Shown here piece by piece: positions 6,633-31,462 of a stretch of DNA of 32,000 nucleotides; position 1 is the stretch's first letter; every line of letters begins with the position of its first letter. Source of the stretch: Mycoplasma mycoides subsp. capri. Lineage in GTDB: Bacteria > Bacillota_I > Bacilli_A > Mycoplasmatales > Mycoplasmataceae. A model generated the notes under the pieces. The model ran no database searches. It was not told the origin of the DNA and worked only from the letters and a program-made list of their open reading frames with translations. The translations under genes and the position numbers were made by a program. Where the stretch lies: NCBI RefSeq assembly GCF_018389705.1, contig NZ_CP065581.1, positions 630,001 through 662,000 of the forward strand. Reading direction: 5' to 3'.

Positions 6633-8846
6633 TTAATCGCTTGTATTTGAATTGTTCTCTGAATTATCTGATGCATTGTTATTTTGTTGATCATTATTAG
6701 TTGGAGTATTATCATCTACTCGACCTATTAATGTAACAGTTTGTAAACTATTATAAGTAAAGTCTTTAGCTTTAAATCTAAAGTTTAATAAATCTGTTAA
6801 AAGACCAAAATCTAAATCGGCATTACGTGTTGAAACAATTGAAATACCTTTAGAAAAATCAACTACTTTATCAAATCCTTCGTTATATGTAGTTTGAAAA
6901 TCTTTGTTTTTATAGAATAATGATTGATAATGATTACCTAAATTTTGATAAATACTAAACTTTTTAACTCCTAACATATTAGAAGTTAAATACTGGTCTT
7001 TTAACCTTTTAGCATCAGCACTAAAATCTAAACTATAAAAACTAGTTGGATCTGTTATTTCGTTACTATTATTTAGGTATTTTTCTCATTCAGATCAAAT
7101 GTTAAAATCTTTATCTTCAAAATCTTCTAAATTACTTGGTTTTCCTGTCATATTGAATAGGTTTTTTCTTTGTGAATAATGAATTTCAGTTTTAACATCT
7201 TTATCTGTTGTGTATGGGAAATTAGGATTTGCTTTTCTAATTCCATAAAATTTATGAAATTCTTCTAACATAATTTCAATACCTTTATAATATGCATCAA
7301 ACATATTAGATTTTTTATAACCTTCATATTTTAGTTTTTCTTTGTTGTCAAAATCTATATTTCTATCATTTTGATCAATTTGTACTACATAATTAAAATT
7401 AATGTTTCCTAGATCATGAATATATCCACTTTTTAGTTTTAATTGTAAACCTTTTAATTCAAAACTTTCAATTGCAGTTGCTGATTTAAATAGATTTTTT
7501 AAAAGATCGTCTCTATCAAATTTTTTACTAAATTCAGATATATCTTTTTCATCTAAAAATTCAAATTTTGAATAAATATCAGTTAGTTTTTGTTTAATTA
7601 CTTCTTTAAAACTAGTTAATTTATTTACTCAAGGTTCAATTAGATCTTGAACTAAATTCATATCTCCCTGTTTTGTAGTAATTAAATCTAGTTTTTGATT
7701 TTTATTAACTTCACCAAAATATAGATGCAATAATTTGTATGCCTCTTCTTTTAAAGAGCCACCATCTTGATTATTATAATTTCTTTCTAAAGGACCAATT
7801 TTTAATTCTGTTTTAATTCTATCAACATCAGTTTTTTGCTCTGGATCTTTATATGAAATTTCTAAATTCTTAACTACTTGATTTTTATTGTTTTTTATTA
7901 ATTTTTCTGAAATTTCATCTTTGATTTTATCGGCTAATTTTTGACTATAAAGATATGTTGCATTTTTATAATTATAGCTAGTTGCTGTTAGTAAATCTTG
8001 AGCAGTTAAAGATTCGTGTTCATTTAATAATTTTTTTAATTCTTTAAAATCAACTGTTAAAAGATCTTTATTATTAAATAGTGAATTAGATCAAAATTTC
8101 TGAATATTATGAACTAATTCAATAACAGCATTTTCACTAGAAATATTAATTATAAAATCATTTGAAATAATTTCTCTTTTAGTTTGTCCATGACCATCTT
8201 TATATTGATAATTAAAGTCTAATCCAATTTTAATAGTTGAATTAAATGAACCATTATCTTCTTCTAAAAATTTCATTTTAGAATTATCTAATCTAAACTT
8301 AAATCCTACAACTAAATTGTTATTAAAATTATCTAATAGAATTCTATATTTATCAATTCCTGTTTTTTTTACTTGTTCTAAAAACAACCTTTTAGCACTA
8401 TGAATACCTAAAACAGTTTCTAAAGTTTTTTGAAATTCTTCTTTTCTTCTATTTGTAAGATTAGAATAAAAACTATGATATCCATCTTTATCTTCATTTG
8501 GATCTCTTTCGCTTACAAGTTGCCTAATACTTTCTTTTGAAAAAAAGCTTTGATTCTCATCTAGATCTTTTGATAAAATAGCTGTTCTTGAAACAATATA
8601 AGGTCTTACAGCCTCATTATAAGCATCTCTCATTTGACTATTAAAACTCTTAATTAAGTCAAGTATTGATTTATTTCTATCACTACTATCAGGTTTAGTA
8701 GTTGGATCAGGTTTAGTGTTTGAATCAGGTTTAGTATTTGAATCGGGTTTTTTGTCTTCTGATTTATCTCTAATACATGCAACAACTGGACTTGCAGCTA
8801 GTGTTATAAAACTAGAAAGTGTTAATAATTTTAGTAGTTTATTCAT
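6633..8846 (-). CDS. Large surface lipoprotein (about 737 aa)
   Basis: Signal peptide with lipobox MNKLLKLLTLSSFITLAASPVVAC. Track fragments 8091-8846, 7095-7304 and 6633-6977 share one frame. The junctions I checked are TGA; real TAA at 6633. Interior continuity was only spot-checked. Confidence 0.7.
8689..8760 (-). repeat. In-frame 18-nt tandem repeat encoding KPD(S/P)(N/T)T units
   Basis: tcaggtttagtNNttgRa repeated at 8689, 8707 and 8725, with a degenerate copy at 8743. It encodes KPDSNTKPDSNTKPDPTTKPDSS just after the lipobox. Confidence 0.7.
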
Positions 8847-8970
8847 TTTTTATCCTTTCTTTTTTAGATTTTTTTATTGTTGAAAATCTAATTATTCTAA
8901 GGTTTTAATTCTTTTTTAAAATGTGATTGACTGCTATTTTTAAATGTACTAAAAGTTTTTATTATAGTTA

Positions 8971-10371
8971 TTATCATTGATTAGTTAAATTATTGATCAT
9001 TAGTAATTTTGTTTGCTTTTGTTCTTCTATGTTTTTAAGAATTTGATGAATATTTTTTATATCTTGTTCAAATTTATTTAATGAATTATTAAATTTATCT
9101 AATTCAACTTTAAAAATACTTCCATTATTTATCGCATCATTAAAATCATCAAACGCTTCTTGTACTGATTCAAAGCTTTTTTTAGTCTCAATTGTTTGTT
9201 TTTTTAATAATGATATTTTTTGATATGAATTATTAAAAAAGGTTTTTAATGCATTTATTTTTACTGTATTAATTTTTTTAATATCAAATTGATCGAGATC
9301 TAATTTGAAATTTTCAAATTCTTTTTTTAGGTCTTCTATTTTTTGTTTTAAATTATCTAGTTCACTAATTTTAGTATCAATAACTATATTTACATCTTTA
9401 ATATCTTTAAGTATTACTTTAATTTCTTTTAATTGATTTTGACTATCTAATAAGCTGTTATTTATTGTTAGTAACTTTTCTTTAGCACTACTAGAAAAGC
9501 TTTTTATAACATTTAATTGATCTATATTAAAATTTGTAGAATCTAGGTTTTGGATTCTATCATAAAGTTGTTTTAAGTCTAATTCAAACTTAACTAAATT
9601 ATCATTAGCTGGTGTTATTTTTGTTTGAGCGTTTTTAACAATTTGTTTTAAATTATCTAGTTCTTTTTTAATAACGTTTGTATATTCTATTTTTTGAATT
9701 ATGTTTTTAAGTTCATTTAGTTGTTTTTCTAAATTAGTTAATCCTACTTTAGCTCTTTGGATTTGTTCTTTTGTAAAAATTGTTTCTTTTATATCATTAA
9801 TAGTTTTTAAAAGATGTTTTAATTCATTTAAAACATTTTCTATATTTAAAGTTATAAGTAACACATTATTCTTTATTATTTTAATTTCTTTTTTTAATTC
9901 TTCTAACTCTTTTTTATTAAGTTGTTCATTATTTGATTGATCTAGTGTTTGTTTAACTAGTTGATAATCTTTTGTACTTTTATTTATAGTTTGTAAAAAA
10001 GAGTTTGTTTTTGTTTTTATTGTTTGTAAGTTTTCATTTAATTTAGCTAATTGATCTTTTTTAATATCACTATTAGTTAATCTATTAAGTTCATTTTCAA
10101 TATTATAAATATCAATTTGAATTTCTTTTAAGTTCTTAGTTGAGGTTTTTATATTATTATCTATTGTTATTAATTCATTTTTTAGTTTTAAAAGTATTTC
10201 TTTATTTTCATTAAAAACATTATTAGGATGTAATTGTTCATTATTTGATGAACTGTTATTAGAGTTAGTGTTATTATTAGGACTTTGATTTGTGTTATTA
10301 CAAGATAAAACTAAAAAAGAAATAACTGGTGTAAAACTAATAATAGATAATAATTTTAATAAACTTTTCAT
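8971..10371 (-). CDS. Coiled-coil surface lipoprotein
   Basis: MKSLLKLLSIISFTPVISFLVLSC lipobox followed by about 440 aa of heptad-like N/K/E/L/I-rich sequence. One extra Trp codon precedes the TAA at 8971. Confidence 0.75.
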
Positions 10372-26471: not shown

Positions 26472-26754
26472 CACTTCTCTAATTAACTATTTATATTATA
26501 AATAAAAGCATATAAATAAAAGTTAAAATTAGTTATAAAACTCAGTTTATAGTCATAAAATTTAGCTATTTGCTTTTAATTAATAATTATAGTTTAAAGT
26601 TTAGAAATTAAAATTCTAATTTAGATTTAATAACTATACAAAATGTAAAAAAGTTTTATTTAGAAGATTATTAAAAATGAAAATGAGTAAATAATAAATA
26701 ACCATTCTTAGTCAGATTACTTGAAATATTAAAATCAGTATGGTATGTTAATAA

Positions 26755-26775
26755 TATAAATATTTTATATTTATA
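26755..26775 (+). promoter_or_regulatory. Conserved 21-bp palindrome (promoter/operator), copy A
   Basis: TATAAATAT-TTT-ATATTTATA, with perfect 9-bp arms; contains TATAAA/TATATT -10-like hexamers. Confidence 0.6.
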
Positions 26776-26873
26776 CGTTGATTGCGAAGAAGGTTCACTG
26801 AACGAAGGCTTCCGGCGGTGAAGCCAGAAATAAATAGAACCAAAAATAGAACTCCTTTTAGGGTTCTTTTTTT
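26776..26873 (+). ncRNA. Candidate small RNA or leader, class 1, copy A (upstream of P1)
   Basis: G+C-rich body. Helix GGTTC (26792-26796) / GAACC (26837-26841) encloses hairpin GGCTTC-cggcggt-GAAGCC (26807-26825). Terminator AGAACTCC-tttt-AGGGTTCT plus T7 ends at 26873. The 5' end is inferred. Confidence 0.6.
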
Positions 26874-26926
26874 ATATATAATTAGTATCTAATTAGAAAG
26901 ATAAACTAAGATTTATTAGTAGTTTA

Positions 26927-27655
26927 ATGTTTGGTACAGTATTTAGATTTAGAAATTTAGATAATACATTACCAATAACAAGAGATAGATATTTTGAACC
27001 TATAGATACCAGTGGTAAAAAACTTCACCGTCCTTATGTTGTTTTTTATTCTGATGATAAGGTTTATTATTTATCTGTTAAAACATTAAAAAAAAAAGAA
27101 AATGAAGCTTCTGTTTATAGAAACCAAGATACTAATGTAATCTTATTAAATAAAACTGTTTATTATGAACCAGTTAAAGGTGAAGCTCTTGGTAATGTAA
27201 TAGATTGTTCATCTGTAAATATAATGGATAGAAAATTATTTGAACAATTATTTGAAAAAGACAGTTTTAAAAATAATTACCAACTAGCTCCTTGAATTTA
27301 TGATCAAGTAATGAACAAACTTTATGAAAATAAAAATAATTTAGTCTTCCATGAAGTAACTGGTTTTAATGACAACAAGGTTGAATGAATGATTGATAAA
27401 ACAAAAACTGAGCAGGGTCGTTTAGAGTATGAAAAATGACGAACAAGAGTTGAAAAAGTAATCACAACTGTAATAGAAATTTATCATTCAATTTCAAGAG
27501 ATGATATAGAAAAAAGATTAAACAATCAAGAAGAATACGTTAAATTTATTAGTCCAATCTATTATGATGAATTAGAATACGTTTATAAATCTTTTGAAAT
27601 AGATGATAAATGAGAAGAATATCAAAAAAGTAATTCTAATAAGCATAAGATGTAA
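26927..27655 (+). CDS. P1: PemK/MazF/ToxN-like N-terminal domain protein with a helical C-terminal domain (candidate toxin)
   Basis: Track ORF 26927-27295 extended across 4 TGA codons (every codon hand-translated) to the TAA at 27653; 242 aa. Motifs GTVFRF, HRPYVVFYSDDKVYYLSVKT and GNVIDCSSVNIMDRKLF. Confidence 0.8.
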
Positions 27656-27796
27656 TTAAGATTATAGGGGTTCTTTTTTTTATACTTATTGGGTATCGCT
27701 TCCTAATATATACTAAGTAAATGTAAAATATAAATATATAAAATAGTTTGCTTGCTATTAATTACAACATCAAAAATTATTATGATATAGTTAAAG

Positions 27797-27817
27797 TATA
27801 AATATTTTATATTTATA
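27797..27817 (+). promoter_or_regulatory. Conserved 21-bp palindrome, copy B
   Basis: Identical TATAAATATTTTATATTTATA. Confidence 0.6.
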
Positions 27818-27916
27818 AGATTGGTGGTTGTAGTTCTTCCGGCCCTGTCTACCATTTGAGATGACGAAATTGAGAATAGAACTAAGTTAGAACTCTCTTA
27901 AAGGAGTTCTTTTTTT
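27818..27916 (+). ncRNA. Candidate small RNA or leader, class 2, copy B (upstream of P2)
   Basis: TGGTGG / CTACCA helix. AGTTCT (27832-27837) is complementary to two AGAACT copies (27878-27883 and 27889-27894). Terminator AGAACTC-tcttaaag-GAGTTCT plus T7 ends at 27916. Confidence 0.6.
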
Positions 27917-27958
27917 ATATAATTTAGTTATATATCTTAAAAAAATAGTAGGTATCAA

Positions 27959-28897
27959 ATGGGTATAGAAGCAGGTAAAATCTATAAAAATCGAAACCAA
28001 GAATATAATTTTTTTATAGCAAAAGATAAAGATGATGAAGTAATTAAAGGTCATGGTATAAATAGACCATTTATTATATTTTATAGTGATGATAAAGTTT
28101 ATTACTTATCTGCTAAAAGTATTAGTAAAAAGAATAGAAAAAAAACTTTAGCTGATAAGTTTAATGTTGTTTTTAAAACAGATCTATATGGAGAAGATAA
28201 AGAAGTAGCTATAAATTGTTCAGTTATAAATATAATGGATAGAAAATTATTTGAAAGTTTATATGTTAAAGATGATGATATGAACAATTTTCAAACTACT
28301 CCATGACACTATGATAAGATAATGGGAACTTTATATAGATATTTTGATGAAATAACATATGCTGAAGCTTCACATATTGATAATGATACGCAACAATTAG
28401 TGTGAAAATCTACTTTAGAATCTAAATTAAATAAATTAGATTGTTTAAAAGTAATCAAAGGGTATAACTATCTTTTATTTGAAAGTGATATATCAAGAAA
28501 AGAGTTGCTAGATAATCCTGATAAATTTTTTAGTTTAGTTACAAGCTTTTATGAAAGAGTTAAATTTGAAACTCAAGAAGATTTTGATGAATATGTTATT
28601 ACACACCAAGAAATGGAATCTATCAAATATGAAGTGCACATTAAAAATGCAATTAAAGAACTAAAACAAAATCTAGAAAAAGAAAAAGAACAACATAAAC
28701 TATTAGAACAAGAGATAGATGTTGTTAAAAAACTAAATTATAAAAATAGTAAAATACAAGAGATGAACCAAGAGCTTAAAGATTGAGAAGAATTAGTTGA
28801 AATATCATCACATAAAACAAATAAAACTAATTCTGATAAAAAAACTGATGAACCAGATAAACCTAAGCAAAATCAATCTAGCAAGCTTAAAATGTAA
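27959..28897 (+). CDS. P2: divergent paralog of P1/P3 (candidate toxin) with a longer Glu/Lys-rich C-terminus
   Basis: Track ORFs 27959-28306 and 28505-28786 are in frame; the junction was hand-translated across TGAs. 312 aa; TAA at 28895. Motifs GKIYK, NRPFIIFYSDDKVYYLSAKS and AINCSVINIMDRKLF. Confidence 0.8.
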
Positions 28898-28952
28898 TTA
28901 AAACTATAATATCTTACTATATATTAAGTAAGTAATAAAGATATAATAAAGA

Positions 28953-28973
28953 TATAAATATTTTATATTTATA
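28953..28973 (+). promoter_or_regulatory. Conserved 21-bp palindrome, copy C
   Basis: Identical TATAAATATTTTATATTTATA. Confidence 0.6.
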
Positions 28974-29070
28974 GGTTGAGCGGTAGCAAGTTCATCTAAA
29001 CCGTGACTTCCGGCGGTGAAGTCTAAATAATTTGAACTAAAAATAGAACTCCTTTTAGGGGTTATTTTTT
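28974..29070 (+). ncRNA. Candidate small RNA, class 1, copy C (orphan, in tandem with D)
   Basis: AGTTCA (28989-28994) / TGAACT (29033-29038). Hairpin GACTTC-cggcggt-GAAGTC (29005-29023). The terminator 3' arm is weakened (GGGGTTA) and followed by T6. Confidence 0.55.
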
Positions 29071-29188
29071 ATACTTAATATATACTAAGTAAGTATAAAA
29101 TATATTATAAAATATGAACTTTATGCATATTAAATAATTTATTTTGATGTTATTTTCAAATACAAAAATTAATATGATATAGTTAAAG

Positions 29189-29209
29189 TATAAATATTTT
29201 ATATTTATA
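29189..29209 (+). promoter_or_regulatory. Conserved 21-bp palindrome, copy D
   Basis: Identical TATAAATATTTTATATTTATA. Confidence 0.6.
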
Positions 29210-29307
29210 CATTGAGCGGCAGTGGGTTCATCTGGTCATGGCGTCCGGAAGTGATGCCGAAAATAATTGAACTAAAAATAGAACTCCTTTTAGGGGGTTC
29301 TTTTTTT
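29210..29307 (+). ncRNA. Candidate small RNA or leader, class 1, copy D (upstream of P3)
   Basis: GGTTCA (29225-29230) / TGAACT (29268-29273). Hairpin GGCGTC-cggaagt-GATGCC (29240-29258). Terminator AGAACTCC-tttta-GGGGGTTCT plus T7. Confidence 0.6.
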
Positions 29308-29345
29308 GTATAATCAATATGTAATAGAAAGATAAACTAAGATTT

Positions 29346-30092
29346 ATGAATAGTGGAATGTACGGTAAAGTGTTTAGATTTAGAAATTTAGATAATACAT
29401 TACCAATAGCAAGAGATAGTCTTTTTAAAAATATACCAACTGATAATAGTAAACTTCACCGTCCTTATGTTGTTTTTTATTCTGATGATAAAGTTTATTT
29501 TTTAAATGTTAAAACACTAAAAGAAAAAAATAAAAATAATGTTGATAAGTACATAGATACTAATGTAATCTTATTAAATAAAACTATTTATAATCAACCA
29601 ATTAAAGGTGAAGCTCTGGGTAATGTAATAGATTGTTCAGTCGTAAATATAATGAATAGAAAATTATTTGAACAACTTTACCAAGAAGATGAGTATTATA
29701 ATAACTATCAATTAGCTCCTTGAATTTATGATCAAGTAATGAATAAACTTTATGAGAATAAAGATAATTTGATAGTTCATCAACTCAAAGCTTTTGATTT
29801 TGAAAATAATAAAACTCTTTGATATGAAACTACAAAATCTAATGACAAGCAAAATTCAACTGATAACAATAAGTGATTAGCTAGAGCTAAAAAAGTAATC
29901 ACAACTGTAATAGAAACTTATCATTCAATTTCAAGAGATGAAATAGAAAAAAGATTAAATAATCAAGAAGAATACATTAAATACATTAGTCCAATCTATT
30001 ATAACGAATTAGAATACGTTTATAATTCTTTTGAAATAGATGATAAATGAGAAGAATATCAAAAAAGTAATTCTAATAAACATAAGATGTAA
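29346..30092 (+). CDS. P3: close paralog of P1 (candidate toxin)
   Basis: Track ORF 29346-29723 extended across TGAs to the TAA at 30090; 248 aa. The C-terminal 70 aa are nearly identical to P1 (KVITTVIE.YHSISRD.IEKRLNNQEEY...DDKWEEYQKSNSNKHKM). An alternative start is the ATG at 29358. Confidence 0.8.
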
Positions 30093-30094
30093 TT

Positions 30095-30119
30095 AAGACT
30101 ATAATATAGTCTTTTTTTT
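30095..30119 (+). terminator. Rho-independent terminator of P3
   Basis: AAGACTATA-a-TATAGTCTT followed by a T-run. Confidence 0.7.
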
Positions 30120-30234
30120 ATACTTAATATATACTAAGTAAGTATAAAATATTATAAACATATAAACTTTATGCATATTAAATAATTATTTTGATATTAA
30201 TTGCAATACCAAAATTATTATGATATATTTAAAG

Positions 30235-30255
30235 TATAAATATTTTATATTTATA
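30235..30255 (+). promoter_or_regulatory. Conserved 21-bp palindrome, copy E
   Basis: Identical TATAAATATTTTATATTTATA. Confidence 0.6.
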
Positions 30256-30353
30256 CGTTGAGTGGCAGTGAGTTCATCTGGTCATGGCGGACGATTGGTG
30301 AAGCCGAAAATAATTGAACTAAAAATAGAACTCCTTTTAGGGGTTCTTTTTTT
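30256..30353 (+). ncRNA. Candidate small RNA, class 1, copy E (orphan, inner hairpin disrupted)
   Basis: Same outer GTTCA/TGAAC and terminator as copy D. The inner hairpin 5' arm reads GGCGGAC against the 3' arm GAAGCC, so only GGC/GCC can pair. Confidence 0.5.
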
Positions 30354-30468
30354 ATACTTAATATATACTAAGTAAATATAAAATATAAGAATAATATAAA
30401 CTTTATACATATTAAATAGTTTTCTTGCTATTAGTTGCAATACCAAAATTATTATGATATAGTTAAAC

Positions 30469-30489
30469 TATAAATATTTTATATTTATG
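30469..30489 (+). promoter_or_regulatory. Conserved palindrome, copy F (last base differs)
   Basis: TATAAATATTTTATATTTATg. Confidence 0.55.
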
Positions 30490-30588
30490 ATATCGGTGGT
30501 TATAGTTCTTCCGGCCATGTCTACCATTTGAGATGACGAAATTGAGAATAGAACTAAGTTAGAACTCTCTTAGAAGAGTTCTTTTTTT
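30490..30588 (+). ncRNA. Candidate small RNA, class 2, copy F (orphan)
   Basis: Near-identical to copy B (GGTGG/CTACC, AGTTCT, two AGAACT). Terminator AGAACTCT-cttaga-AGAGTTCT plus T7. Confidence 0.55.
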
Positions 30589-30701
30589 ATACTTAATATA
30601 TACTAAGTAAATATAAAATATATTAGAACGTATAAACTTTGTATATGTATTAAGTATTTTTTTATTTTTGCAAGTCCAGAATTAATATGATATAGTTAAA
30701 G

Positions 30702-30722
30702 TATAAATATTTTATATTTATA
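30702..30722 (+). promoter_or_regulatory. Conserved 21-bp palindrome, copy G
   Basis: Identical TATAAATATTTTATATTTATA. Confidence 0.6.
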
Positions 30723-30820
30723 AGTTGAGCGGTAGCAAGTTCATCTAAACCGTGACTTCCGGCGGTGAAGTCTAAATAATTTGAACTAAAAATAGAACTC
30801 CTTTTGAGAGTTCTTTTTTT
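30723..30820 (+). ncRNA. Candidate small RNA, class 1, copy G (orphan; 114 nt upstream of the DUF285 gene)
   Basis: Body identical to copy C. Terminator 3' arm changed to GAGAGTTCT (AGAACTC/GAGTTCT pairing), followed by T7. Confidence 0.55.
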
Positions 30821-30934
30821 ATACTTAATACGTACTAACTAACTTTAAAATATATTAGAAAAATTAAATTTTATCTATATTAAATAGTTTGCTTGTTATT
30901 TATTTAAAATAATATTAAAAATAAATTAAAGATT

Positions 30935-31462
30935 ATGATGAATAAAATTATAAAACAACCAGTTTATAATACTAATCAAACTGAATGCTTAGAAATTGGA
31001 TATGAATGATATGATAATCAAATATCAATTATTCCATTTCCTCATACTATTAAAAAAGTTCCAAGAGTTTTACCAACTCAAATTACTAGTTTAGAAAATG
31101 CCTTTATTTATAATCAAAATGAATTTATTGATGGAATAGAGTACTGAGATACATCAAATATAACTAATATGTATTCTATGTTTTATGAAGCTAATAATTT
31201 TAATCAAAATATTAGCATGTGAGATGTAAGTAATGTTGTTGATATGAGTTATATGTTTTGTTGAGCTTATAAATTTAATCAAGACATTTCAAATTGAAAT
31301 GTAAGTAATGTTAAATATATGAATGATATGTTTTATTGTGCTAATAATTTTAATCAAAATATTTCTAAATGAAATGTAAGTAATGTAAAAAAGGATTATC
31401 AAAATATTGGTAGTGGTGGGTTTAATTGAAAAGATGAGTTTAAACCTAAGTTTAATAAATAG
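30935..31462 (+). CDS. DUF285-type (BspA-like leucine-rich repeat) protein
   Basis: Fully hand-translated: 175 aa with 7 TGA = Trp codons. Repeats of the form MF..A..FNQ.IS.W[DN]VSNV are characteristic of the Mollicutes DUF285 family. TAG at 31460. Confidence 0.8.

Follow-up and report, generated by a model that had tools for sequence, protein, structure and literature searches.

The window analysed here, a stretch of 32,000 nucleotides (nt) from Mycoplasma mycoides subsp. capri (NZ_CP065581.1, positions 630,001 to 662,000 of the contig; positions given below are those of the window unless a locus is named), carries an array of seven small RNA (sRNA) genes, named A to G, interspersed with three protein genes, P1 to P3 (Table 1). 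The window is M. mycoides DNA with a G+C content of 21.8% and its genes run through TGA, read as tryptophan, for which reason genetic code 4 was adopted; translation under this code gives three intact genes in the region, all belonging to the family that NCBIfam names "Mbov_0400 family ICE element protein" (NF045891; ICE, integrative and conjugative element). The sRNA genes belong to MCS4, a Mycoplasma sRNA known from M. capricolum since the early 1990s; Ushida and Muto are said to have reported in 1993 that it is abundant in this species and U6-like. The association of the two, an MCS4 RNA gene followed by an Mbov_0400 gene, is the subject of this analysis and constitutes a conserved module that has apparently been undescribed so far.

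Table 1. Features of the sRNA/protein array of the window and its 3' flank (plus strand = strand shown).
Feature	Position	Strand	Remarks
Promoter-like site of RNA A	26721–26749	+	TTGAAA-17-TATGTT with TG; stops 6 nt before the 5' hairpin
RNA A	26755–26874	+	class 1 (A-type); RF02713 35.2 bits, E = 0.02; terminator; fold z = −2.9
Candidate own promoter of P1	26877–26882	+	TATAAT, 3 nt past the T-run
P1	26927–27655	+	242 amino acids; Mbov_0400 family ICE element protein; NF045891 122.1 bits, E = 2e-35
RNA B	27797–27917	+	class 2; RF02713 66.1 bits
Candidate promoter of P2	27918–27923	+	TATAAT, directly past the terminator
P2	27959–28897	+	312 amino acids; divergent subtype with long helical C-terminal extension; NF045891 111.9 bits, E = 3e-32
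RNA C	28953–29072	+	class 1 (C/G-type); no protein gene after it; RF02713 37.2 bits, E = 0.009
Promoter-like site of RNA D	29155–29183	+	TTCAAA-17-TATAGT with TG; palindrome starts at 29189
RNA D	29189–29308	+	class 1 (D/E-type); RF02713 52 bits; fold z = −4.5
Candidate promoter of P3	29309–29314	+	TGTATAAT, extended −10, directly past the terminator
P3	29346–30092	+	248 amino acids; Mbov_0400 family; NF045891 112.5 bits, E = 2e-32
Tandem array	30113–30890	+	234-nt period, 3.3 units of whole sRNA genes (spacer, promoter and RNA); spans E, F and G
Promoter-like site of RNA E	30201–30229	+	sigma-70-like, TG-extended −10
RNA E	30235–30354	+	class 1 (D/E-type), orphan; RF02713 58.6 bits
Promoter-like site of RNA F	30435–30463	+	sigma-70-like, TG-extended −10
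RNA F	30469–30589	+	class 2, orphan; RF02713 58.3 bits
Promoter-like site of RNA G	30668–30696	+	sigma-70-like, TG-extended −10
RNA G	30702–30821	+	class 1 (C/G-type), orphan; RF02713 42.7 bits
DUF285 gene	30935–31462		3' flank of the array

All seven RNA units align to the Rfam model of MCS4 (RF02713) over its full length (model positions 1–123) and have in common with it the 5' hairpin, the core made of helices P2 and P3 and the terminator. The gathering score of the model, 56 bits, is passed by three of the seven units (B, E and F); D, G, C and A fall under it (52 to 35 bits) and are still full-length matches with E ≤ 0.02. Because four of seven copies lie under this score, routine annotation would miss more than half of the array together with all the divergent homologues elsewhere. 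An earlier note, made from the sequence alone, had divided the units into a class 2 (B and F) and a class 1 (A, C, D, E and G), a division that is borne out by the identities between RNA bodies, since B and F are 96% identical and share 49–65% with the other five units. Class 1 is indeed set apart from B and F, but it is not uniform and comprises three subtypes, namely A, C/G (100% identity) and D/E (86% identity), which are 68–73% identical to one another. The adjacency is also as described, with A before P1, B before P2 and D before P3. One of the short islands thought to be shared by both classes, tccgg, was nevertheless misjudged: segmentation of the RNAs places it in the stem and loop of helix P3 in class 1 and in the junction after the 5' strand of helix P2 in class 2, so that the two occurrences are non-homologous.

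An intrinsic-terminator-like hairpin with a T-run closes every unit from A to G. A terminator scan returned nine sites (eight on the plus strand and one on the minus strand) against 0.4 expected, and seven of the plus-strand sites are the 3' ends of A to G; the terminators are strong, with stems of 7–9 bp and 7–8 U. At the other end of the units, sigma-70-like promoters with a TG-extended −10 box stop 5–7 nt short of a 21-nt palindrome, which is stem 1 of the Rfam MCS4 model. This palindrome had been described as a promoter element that stays identical across both classes. The identity holds apart from one base in F, but its position downstream of the extended −10 promoter and its equivalence to MCS4 stem 1 indicate that it is transcribed and forms a 5' hairpin, and that it is no promoter.

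The match to NF045891 covers about the first 150 amino acids (aa) of P1, P2 and P3 and lies above the curated cutoff of 55 bits in all three. The family name is a label with no function attached to it. The copies in the window lie outside any intact ICE. P1 is identical to the M. mycoides protein P0002 and P2 falls in the P0008 cluster. The relationships among the three proteins are those previously noticed, P1 and P3 being close (70% identity) and P2 divergent from either (27% overall, 35–39% over the N-terminal 135 aa). The family comprises 62 clusters at 90% identity, and an exhaustive profile search of 1.84 billion representative proteins returned only 44 family representatives and no bridge to any known family; 11 of the 44 were inspected, including the most distant full-length matches, and all were Mollicutes-like. 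By this distribution, the protein family is restricted to Mycoplasma. Two family members, P0013 and P0051, are annotated as Vibrio harveyi and are probably Mycoplasma contamination of the assembly, which is suspected because the distribution of the family is otherwise Mollicutes-only.

Scans of P1–P3 and 39 family members against Pfam, PADLOC and PHROGs gave no match, and a profile search against the PDB gave none below E = 0.19. An AlphaFold2 model of P1, built with 39 homologues, has a predicted local distance difference test (pLDDT) score of 92 and a predicted template modelling (pTM) score of 0.88, and consists of a beta-rich N-terminal domain followed by long helices; a Foldseek search with this model found no solved or viral structure below E = 0.1. 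The ratio of nonsynonymous to synonymous substitution rates (dN/dS) between cassette copies is 0.22–0.57, which argues that the protein genes are under purifying selection. The proteins of the family close with a short alternating motif (...KHKM, ...KLKM, ...FTLKL, ...GLIL/GLVL, ...DLELEL or ...KFRM), located in the window at 27641–27652, 28883–28894 and 30078–30089 and preceded by a highly variable stretch; this motif could be a targeting, transfer or oligomerisation signal.

Homologous loci were gathered by exact protein look-up, which resulted in a sample of 36 family genes from ten Mycoplasma species; these genes lie in 29 sequences, namely the window plus the 28 loci L001 to L028. In this sample an MCS4-like RNA gene stops 15–53 nt before the ATG of 35 of the 36 family genes, the 36th being situated at a contig end. 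With an nhmmer profile, 32 of the 36 genes were seen to have an MCS4-like RNA within less than 90 nt on their upstream side; of the other four, the gene of L011 lies on a contig that is cut 71 nt upstream, and three M. agalactiae genes (L025–L027) gave no nhmmer match. The upstream region of L025, when read by eye, contains a divergent structured RNA with promoter, 5' hairpin and terminator, and the M. arginini gene (L028) also has an upstream sRNA gene (fold z = −2.6 and −4.3 for the M. agalactiae and M. arginini RNAs, respectively). Over the 29 sequences nhmmer found 50 RNA matches for the 36 family genes, often with two RNA genes per protein gene, and two tandem sRNA genes accompany each protein gene in M. 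bovis and at the rpsT locus described below. MCS4 is in consequence broader than its Rfam model, with divergent members in M. putrefaciens, M. yeatsii, M. cottewii, Mycoplasma sp. HU2014, M. bovis, M. agalactiae and M. arginini and, in M. mycoides itself, a third type adjoining rpsT that also lies beyond the model.

This third cassette type (M. mycoides capri loci L013–L018, 6651–6967) is made of two tandem divergent MCS4-like RNAs and a 211-aa protein of the family. Its protein cluster, P0045, comprises ACU78310.1, ACU79140.1 and ADH21854.1, whose accession prefixes we take to stand for strain GM12 and JCVI-syn1.0, the database label reading only M. mycoides subsp. capri. The presence of this cassette beside rpsT in the GM12/JCVI-syn1.0 lineage would be relevant to minimal-cell annotation.

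The genomic surroundings were read for twelve family members. Most loci have an ICE context in which TraG and a very large protein are followed by the cassette or cassettes and these, in turn, by ParA and/or a CDS22-type recombinase; the family gene is located near one ICE end in M. mycoides capri, M. putrefaciens, M. yeatsii, M. cottewii, M. bovis, M. agalactiae and M. arginini. Chromosomal copies are those of M. feriruminatoris, of the second M. mycoides locus adjoining rpsT and of the window. M. bovis has both hominis-type and spiroplasma-type ICEs (PMC12892342), which could explain the closeness of the M. bovis RNA to class 2 of M. mycoides.

Sixteen distinct RNAs were segmented by hand, their stems being delimited by hand or by minimum free energy (MFE) folding. 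The core common to them consists of a long-range helix P2 (GUUC/GAAC) that encloses a hairpin, P3. Pairs 2–6 of helix P2 are canonical in 80 of 80 cells, with pair 2 alternating between AU, GC and GU and a UA-to-CG change in M. cottewii, and pair 2 of helix P3 occurs in all four Watson–Crick types (GC in 7 RNAs, CG in 5, AU in 2 and UA in 2). A 5' hairpin is present in every lineage with a lineage-specific sequence: UAUAAAUAU/AUAUUUAUA in M. mycoides and M. feriruminatoris, where it is common to both classes, GUUCU/AGAAC in M. bovis, GUAAAUAUUU/AAAUAUUUAC in M. yeatsii and M. cottewii, AAGUUG/CAACUU in the rpsT-type (L013-type) RNA and a different sequence again in M. putrefaciens, where the hairpin is kept. 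The 5' end is homogenised within a lineage and the core is cassette-specific, and it is this homogenisation that makes the palindrome identical across the two classes in the window. The 5'-terminal hairpin would most simply be a stabiliser.

An additional J1:J2 helix or pseudoknot, suggested by RNAalifold and by the MFE structure of the M. bovis RNA, was dropped because the changes found in it were only one-sided. In class-2-like RNAs, J1 (GGYRG) can pair with CUGYC (for example, 27823–27827 with 27847–27851 in the window, and 6893–6919 in L020); this pairing competes with helix P3 and would give a pseudoknot with helix P2.

Four RNA genes of the window (C, E, F and G) are orphans. The sequence after them (ATACTTAATATATACTAAGTAA...) is the same as that after the P1 and P3 genes (27656–27720 and 30093–30150 compared with 29073–29110, 30355–30395, 30590–30630 and 30822–30860), and the 3' half of the MCS4 terminator (AGGGGTTCTTTTTTTT) recurs at the 3' end of P1. 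Since the post-orphan sequence equals the post-gene sequence, the orphans would most simply be cassettes that have lost spacer and gene by recombination between direct repeats; alternatively, they may represent empty cassettes that later received genes.

The proposal of the earlier note was that the RNA class tracks the protein subtype, and that this co-divergence is what specific RNA–protein partners should display. The window alone offers three pairs, for which the chance of the pattern is about 0.19 by our own arithmetic and not significant by itself. Across 19 RNA–protein pairs in which RNA-core identity was compared with N-domain identity, the two are strongly correlated (Spearman rho = 0.76, Mantel r = 0.88) and none of 5000 permutations gave as high a value, although this permutation statistic overstates independence because the deep split between class 1 and class 2 is in effect a single event. 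Without exception, class-2-like RNAs stand before P2-like proteins (~310 aa) or the relatives of these in M. bovis and class-1 RNAs before proteins of ~245 aa, and the proteins of the rpsT type, M. cottewii, M. agalactiae and M. arginini each have an RNA type of their own; no cross-class chimera was found among the fetched family loci. The tracking itself is therefore confirmed across genomes. Its use as evidence of specific partners did not survive, given the adjacency of 15–53 nt, the inheritance of the cassettes as blocks and the uncoupling seen within class 1. The spacer between RNA and gene is also class-specific.

At the level of sequence, these comparisons establish the identity of both parts, the anatomy of the cassette and its conservation in ten Mycoplasma species of two phylogenetic groups. 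With a probability of about 0.6, we read the locus as an array of ICE-derived MCS4-sRNA/Mbov_0400 cassettes that are inherited as blocks and in which the RNA likely acts on its neighbour. The first part of such a cassette is an MCS4-family RNA gene of ~120 nt, apparently transcribed independently, with an extended −10 promoter, the 5' hairpin, the P2/P3 core and a strong terminator; the second, optional part is an Mbov_0400 gene 15–53 nt downstream with its own TATAAT abutting the T-run. RNA core, terminator, spacer and gene would be duplicated, transferred and inherited together, thereby producing the class tracking, while promoter and 5' hairpin would be homogenised among the copies of a lineage. 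The RNA could then serve as a bound partner or inhibitor of the neighbouring protein or as a regulator of its expression, with the variable core (J1, J2 and helix P3) as the presumed specificity-bearing part, the 5' hairpin as a generic stabiliser and the orphan copies as putative cassettes after gene loss. Given that RNA gene and protein gene remain together down to ~30% protein identity, it is most likely the neighbour on which the abundant RNA acts, and this persistence across deep divergence suggests a functional partnership of RNA and protein; specific cognate recognition and a toxin–antitoxin (TA) mechanism are put forward as hypotheses.

Several points weigh against this reading. Linkage alone explains the class tracking, since a correlation between RNA and protein is predicted for any partners ~40 nt apart. 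Within class 1, similarity between the proteins does not predict the RNA subtype: P3 and L005:7001, which both have D/E-type RNAs, are 74% identical against 77–81% with proteins that have A-type RNAs, and L006:7001, whose middle region is P3-like, goes with an A-type RNA. Among the M. mycoides cassettes, the core of the RNA has diverged roughly as fast as synonymous sites (69% core identity between the cassettes of P1 and P3, at a synonymous divergence, dS, of 0.35). Orphan RNA genes exist with no adjacent protein gene, and the reported abundance of MCS4 in M. capricolum is likewise counted as a sign that the RNA is able to exist without one. As for the protein, it is not basic (isoelectric point of ~6) and the Foldseek search with the P1 model revealed no recognisable RNA-binding or nuclease fold. 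Finally, transposon insertions in the region after CDS19 in the ICEA of M. agalactiae did not abolish transfer (PMC6030558); insertions in ncr19/E and in cdsE, a possible but uncertain counterpart of the family, left transfer intact, and cdsE has a chromosomal homologue (PMC6030558).

The linkage, the class-1 uncoupling, the near-neutral divergence of the RNA core inside M. mycoides and the orphans would all be expected if the adjacency were meaningless, that is, if MCS4 were a stand-alone sRNA or a promoter/terminator insulator that proliferates with ICE cargo and the class tracking were the product of hitch-hiking, for which linkage fully accounts. We consider this explanation unlikely, because the RNA gene is kept at the same upstream position in all ten species over the whole range of protein divergence, because the RNAs of M. 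agalactiae and M. arginini are barely alignable and yet fold as structured sRNA genes with the z-scores given above, and because the stems contain compensatory changes. Over longer distances the divergence of the RNA core is well under dS, with 79% core identity at a dS of 0.81 between M. putrefaciens and M. yeatsii; the two M. bovis copies have 97% core identity at a dS of 0.26. By these substitution measures, together with the dN/dS values of the genes, both partners are under purifying selection.

The region between the RNA and the protein gene is informative as to how the latter is expressed. In 17 of 21 family genes (loci L001–L028), a perfect TATAAT is located 1 nt past the T-run of the terminator. 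In M. bovis the distance between this motif and the ATG is 8 nt, which points to a promoter separate from that of the RNA and to a near-leaderless mRNA in this species; orphan RNAs have TATACT at the position of the gene's TATAAT. From these motifs, it is likely that the protein gene is transcribed separately from the RNA. The earlier note had allowed for a protein-binding autoregulatory leader, in which MCS4 would be a terminated 5' leader, or attenuator, whose terminator read-through is modulated in cis by the protein or another factor. Such an arrangement would agree with the terminator lying 15–53 nt from the ATG in every lineage, and in the RNAs of M. mycoides, M. putrefaciens and M. yeatsii the AGUUC of the 5' strand of helix P2 may pair with either the GAACU of its 3' strand or an identical GAACU with which the terminator stem starts, an alternative pairing from which an antiterminator might result. 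However, the second GAAC is missing from the terminators of M. bovis, HU2014 and the L013 type, so that the antiterminator switch is not conserved; the promoter motifs just described point to a separate transcript, the strong terminators speak against read-through, and RNA genes complete with promoter and terminator persist as orphans that have no gene downstream. The idea of an autoregulatory leader is weakened by the gene's own TATAAT and by the orphans, and we regard it as distinctly unlikely.

Antisense control was weighed in the same way. Here the class-specific core would repress the cognate mRNA by base-pairing around its translation start, as happens in a type I system or with a classical sRNA. 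The class-2 core (27820–27889) and the start of the P2 mRNA (27917–27994) do form a predicted duplex of −32.6 kcal/mol (RNAduplex), a value that was not reached in 500 shuffles or in 269 genomic windows, and this duplex includes the pairing of the loop CCAUUUGA with UCAAAUGG across the AUG. The other cognate pairs, in contrast, are at background (M. putrefaciens −17.5, M. yeatsii −12.7, M. bovis −13.1, P1 −12.0 and P3 −18.3 kcal/mol), the cognate mean of −16.1 is close to the non-cognate mean of −14.8, and complementary 10-mers elsewhere in the loci revealed nothing consistent. Antisense control is thus very improbable as a general mechanism, and the complementarity between class 2 and the start of P2 is a lineage-specific observation. 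A type I TA system, in which the toxin is a small hydrophobic peptide, was also rejected as a candidate, the proteins being 242–312 aa long and apparently soluble and the cognate duplexes being at background except for P2 of M. mycoides.

Type III TA systems (ToxIN, AbiQ/antiQ, CptIN and TenpIN), to which the earlier note had compared the locus, are similar in their layout of RNA gene, intrinsic terminator and protein gene, in their occurrence on mobile elements, in having paralogues with distinct RNAs and in the excess of RNA over protein genes. The differences concern what defines the type. The type III antitoxin is an array of 34–36-nt repeats processed by the toxin, whereas an MCS4 gene, which has a promoter and a terminator to itself, encodes one structured unit of ~120 nt; no short tandem repeats were detected by TRF inside any RNA body, the sole repeat being the 234-nt array of whole genes. 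The type III toxin is an endoribonuclease of the ToxN/AbiQ/CptN/TenpN families, and the protein studied here is unrelated to ToxN/AbiQ by profile and by fold: hhalign of the family profile against a ToxN profile (its ToxN sequence verified to be identical to PDB 2xd0) gave a probability of 0.08%, Pfam and PADLOC hidden Markov models gave no ToxN/AbiQ match, and Foldseek of the P1 model against the PDB, which holds 2xd0, 4ato and 4glk, found no ToxN/AbiQ match below E = 0.1. A resemblance between RPYVVFYSDDKVYYLSVKT and RPYVGV...YFVPLTS was dropped after the negative hhalign result. In type III systems, moreover, one upstream promoter drives both RNA and toxin gene across the intrinsic terminator. 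The terminator is present here, but it is followed by a TATAAT in the 17 of 21 genes already mentioned, and the protein gene apparently has its own promoter. Because both defining features, repeats and toxin fold, are lacking, the locus falls outside the known type III families; by analogy it may still work like an RNA-antitoxin system.

In that case, the Mbov_0400 protein would be a putative toxin, MCS4 a class-specific binding antitoxin and the orphans antitoxin-only immunity copies of an addiction module. A strongly promoted RNA followed by an intrinsic terminator and a protein gene fits this layout, as do the position on mobile elements beside ParA and the CDS22 recombinase, the several paralogous cassettes per genome with class-specific RNAs, the surplus of RNA matches over family genes, the orphans that apparently arose by gene loss and the truncated protein genes that occur in clusters. 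Set against this are the absence of short repeats from the RNA bodies and of any ToxN/AbiQ similarity in the searches listed above, and also the −10 box of the protein genes, owing to which the ratio of RNA to protein need not depend on terminator read-through. An addiction module of this type III-like kind is possible but, on balance, improbable. Tentatively, and at well under an even chance, the cassettes could represent a new RNA–protein two-gene system on Mycoplasma ICEs, in which a non-repetitive, structured and independently transcribed sRNA of ~120 nt specifically binds a protein of unseen fold and neutralises or regulates it, with classes that are non-cross-reactive. If so, its role could be one in addiction, exclusion or defence, and MCS4, long known and functionally orphan, would be an ICE-derived antitoxin-like or partner RNA.

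Structured RNAs tied to a protein partner are otherwise known from the bacterial Y RNA beside Rsr/Ro, the OLE RNA beside OapA and FinP/FinO of F plasmids. FinOP is, like the MCS4 cassette, part of a conjugative element, but neither it nor Y RNA or OLE has a sequence, Rfam or fold relationship to the cassette and the likeness is architectural only.

The Rfam description line and the searchable literature hold no link of MCS4 to a protein gene or to ICEs, and the searchable literature offers neither a function for MCS4 nor a link of the Mbov_0400 family to MCS4 or to a function. The module is likewise not described in the searchable literature on TA systems and sRNAs in Mycoplasma ICEs, nor is it mentioned in a paper on the TA systems of M. 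mycoides capri (PMC8562856). The finding that MCS4 consistently accompanies the genes of one ICE protein family on their upstream side leads to a concrete hypothesis that can be tested for RNA and protein, both of them orphans. In ruminant pathogens, Mycoplasma ICEs are drivers of gene flow on a large scale, and a cassette that is duplicated, diversified and parked on the chromosome could bear on ICE maintenance, exclusion and the competition between co-resident ICEs. Should the RNA prove to be a specific protein antagonist, RNA-antitoxin systems would extend beyond the ToxN fold and beyond antitoxins made of repeat arrays.

With regard to the site itself, the cassettes of the window are chromosomal and occupy a spot between the scpAB region and the DUF285 gene. 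Lipoprotein-like genes with repetitive KPDSNTKPD-type segments are located upstream in the window (6633–10371). Locus L012 is syntenic with the window, yet it has only two RNAs and one gene. From this comparison and from the flanking DUF285 and lipoprotein-like genes, the chromosomal spot of the array is a strain-variable region.

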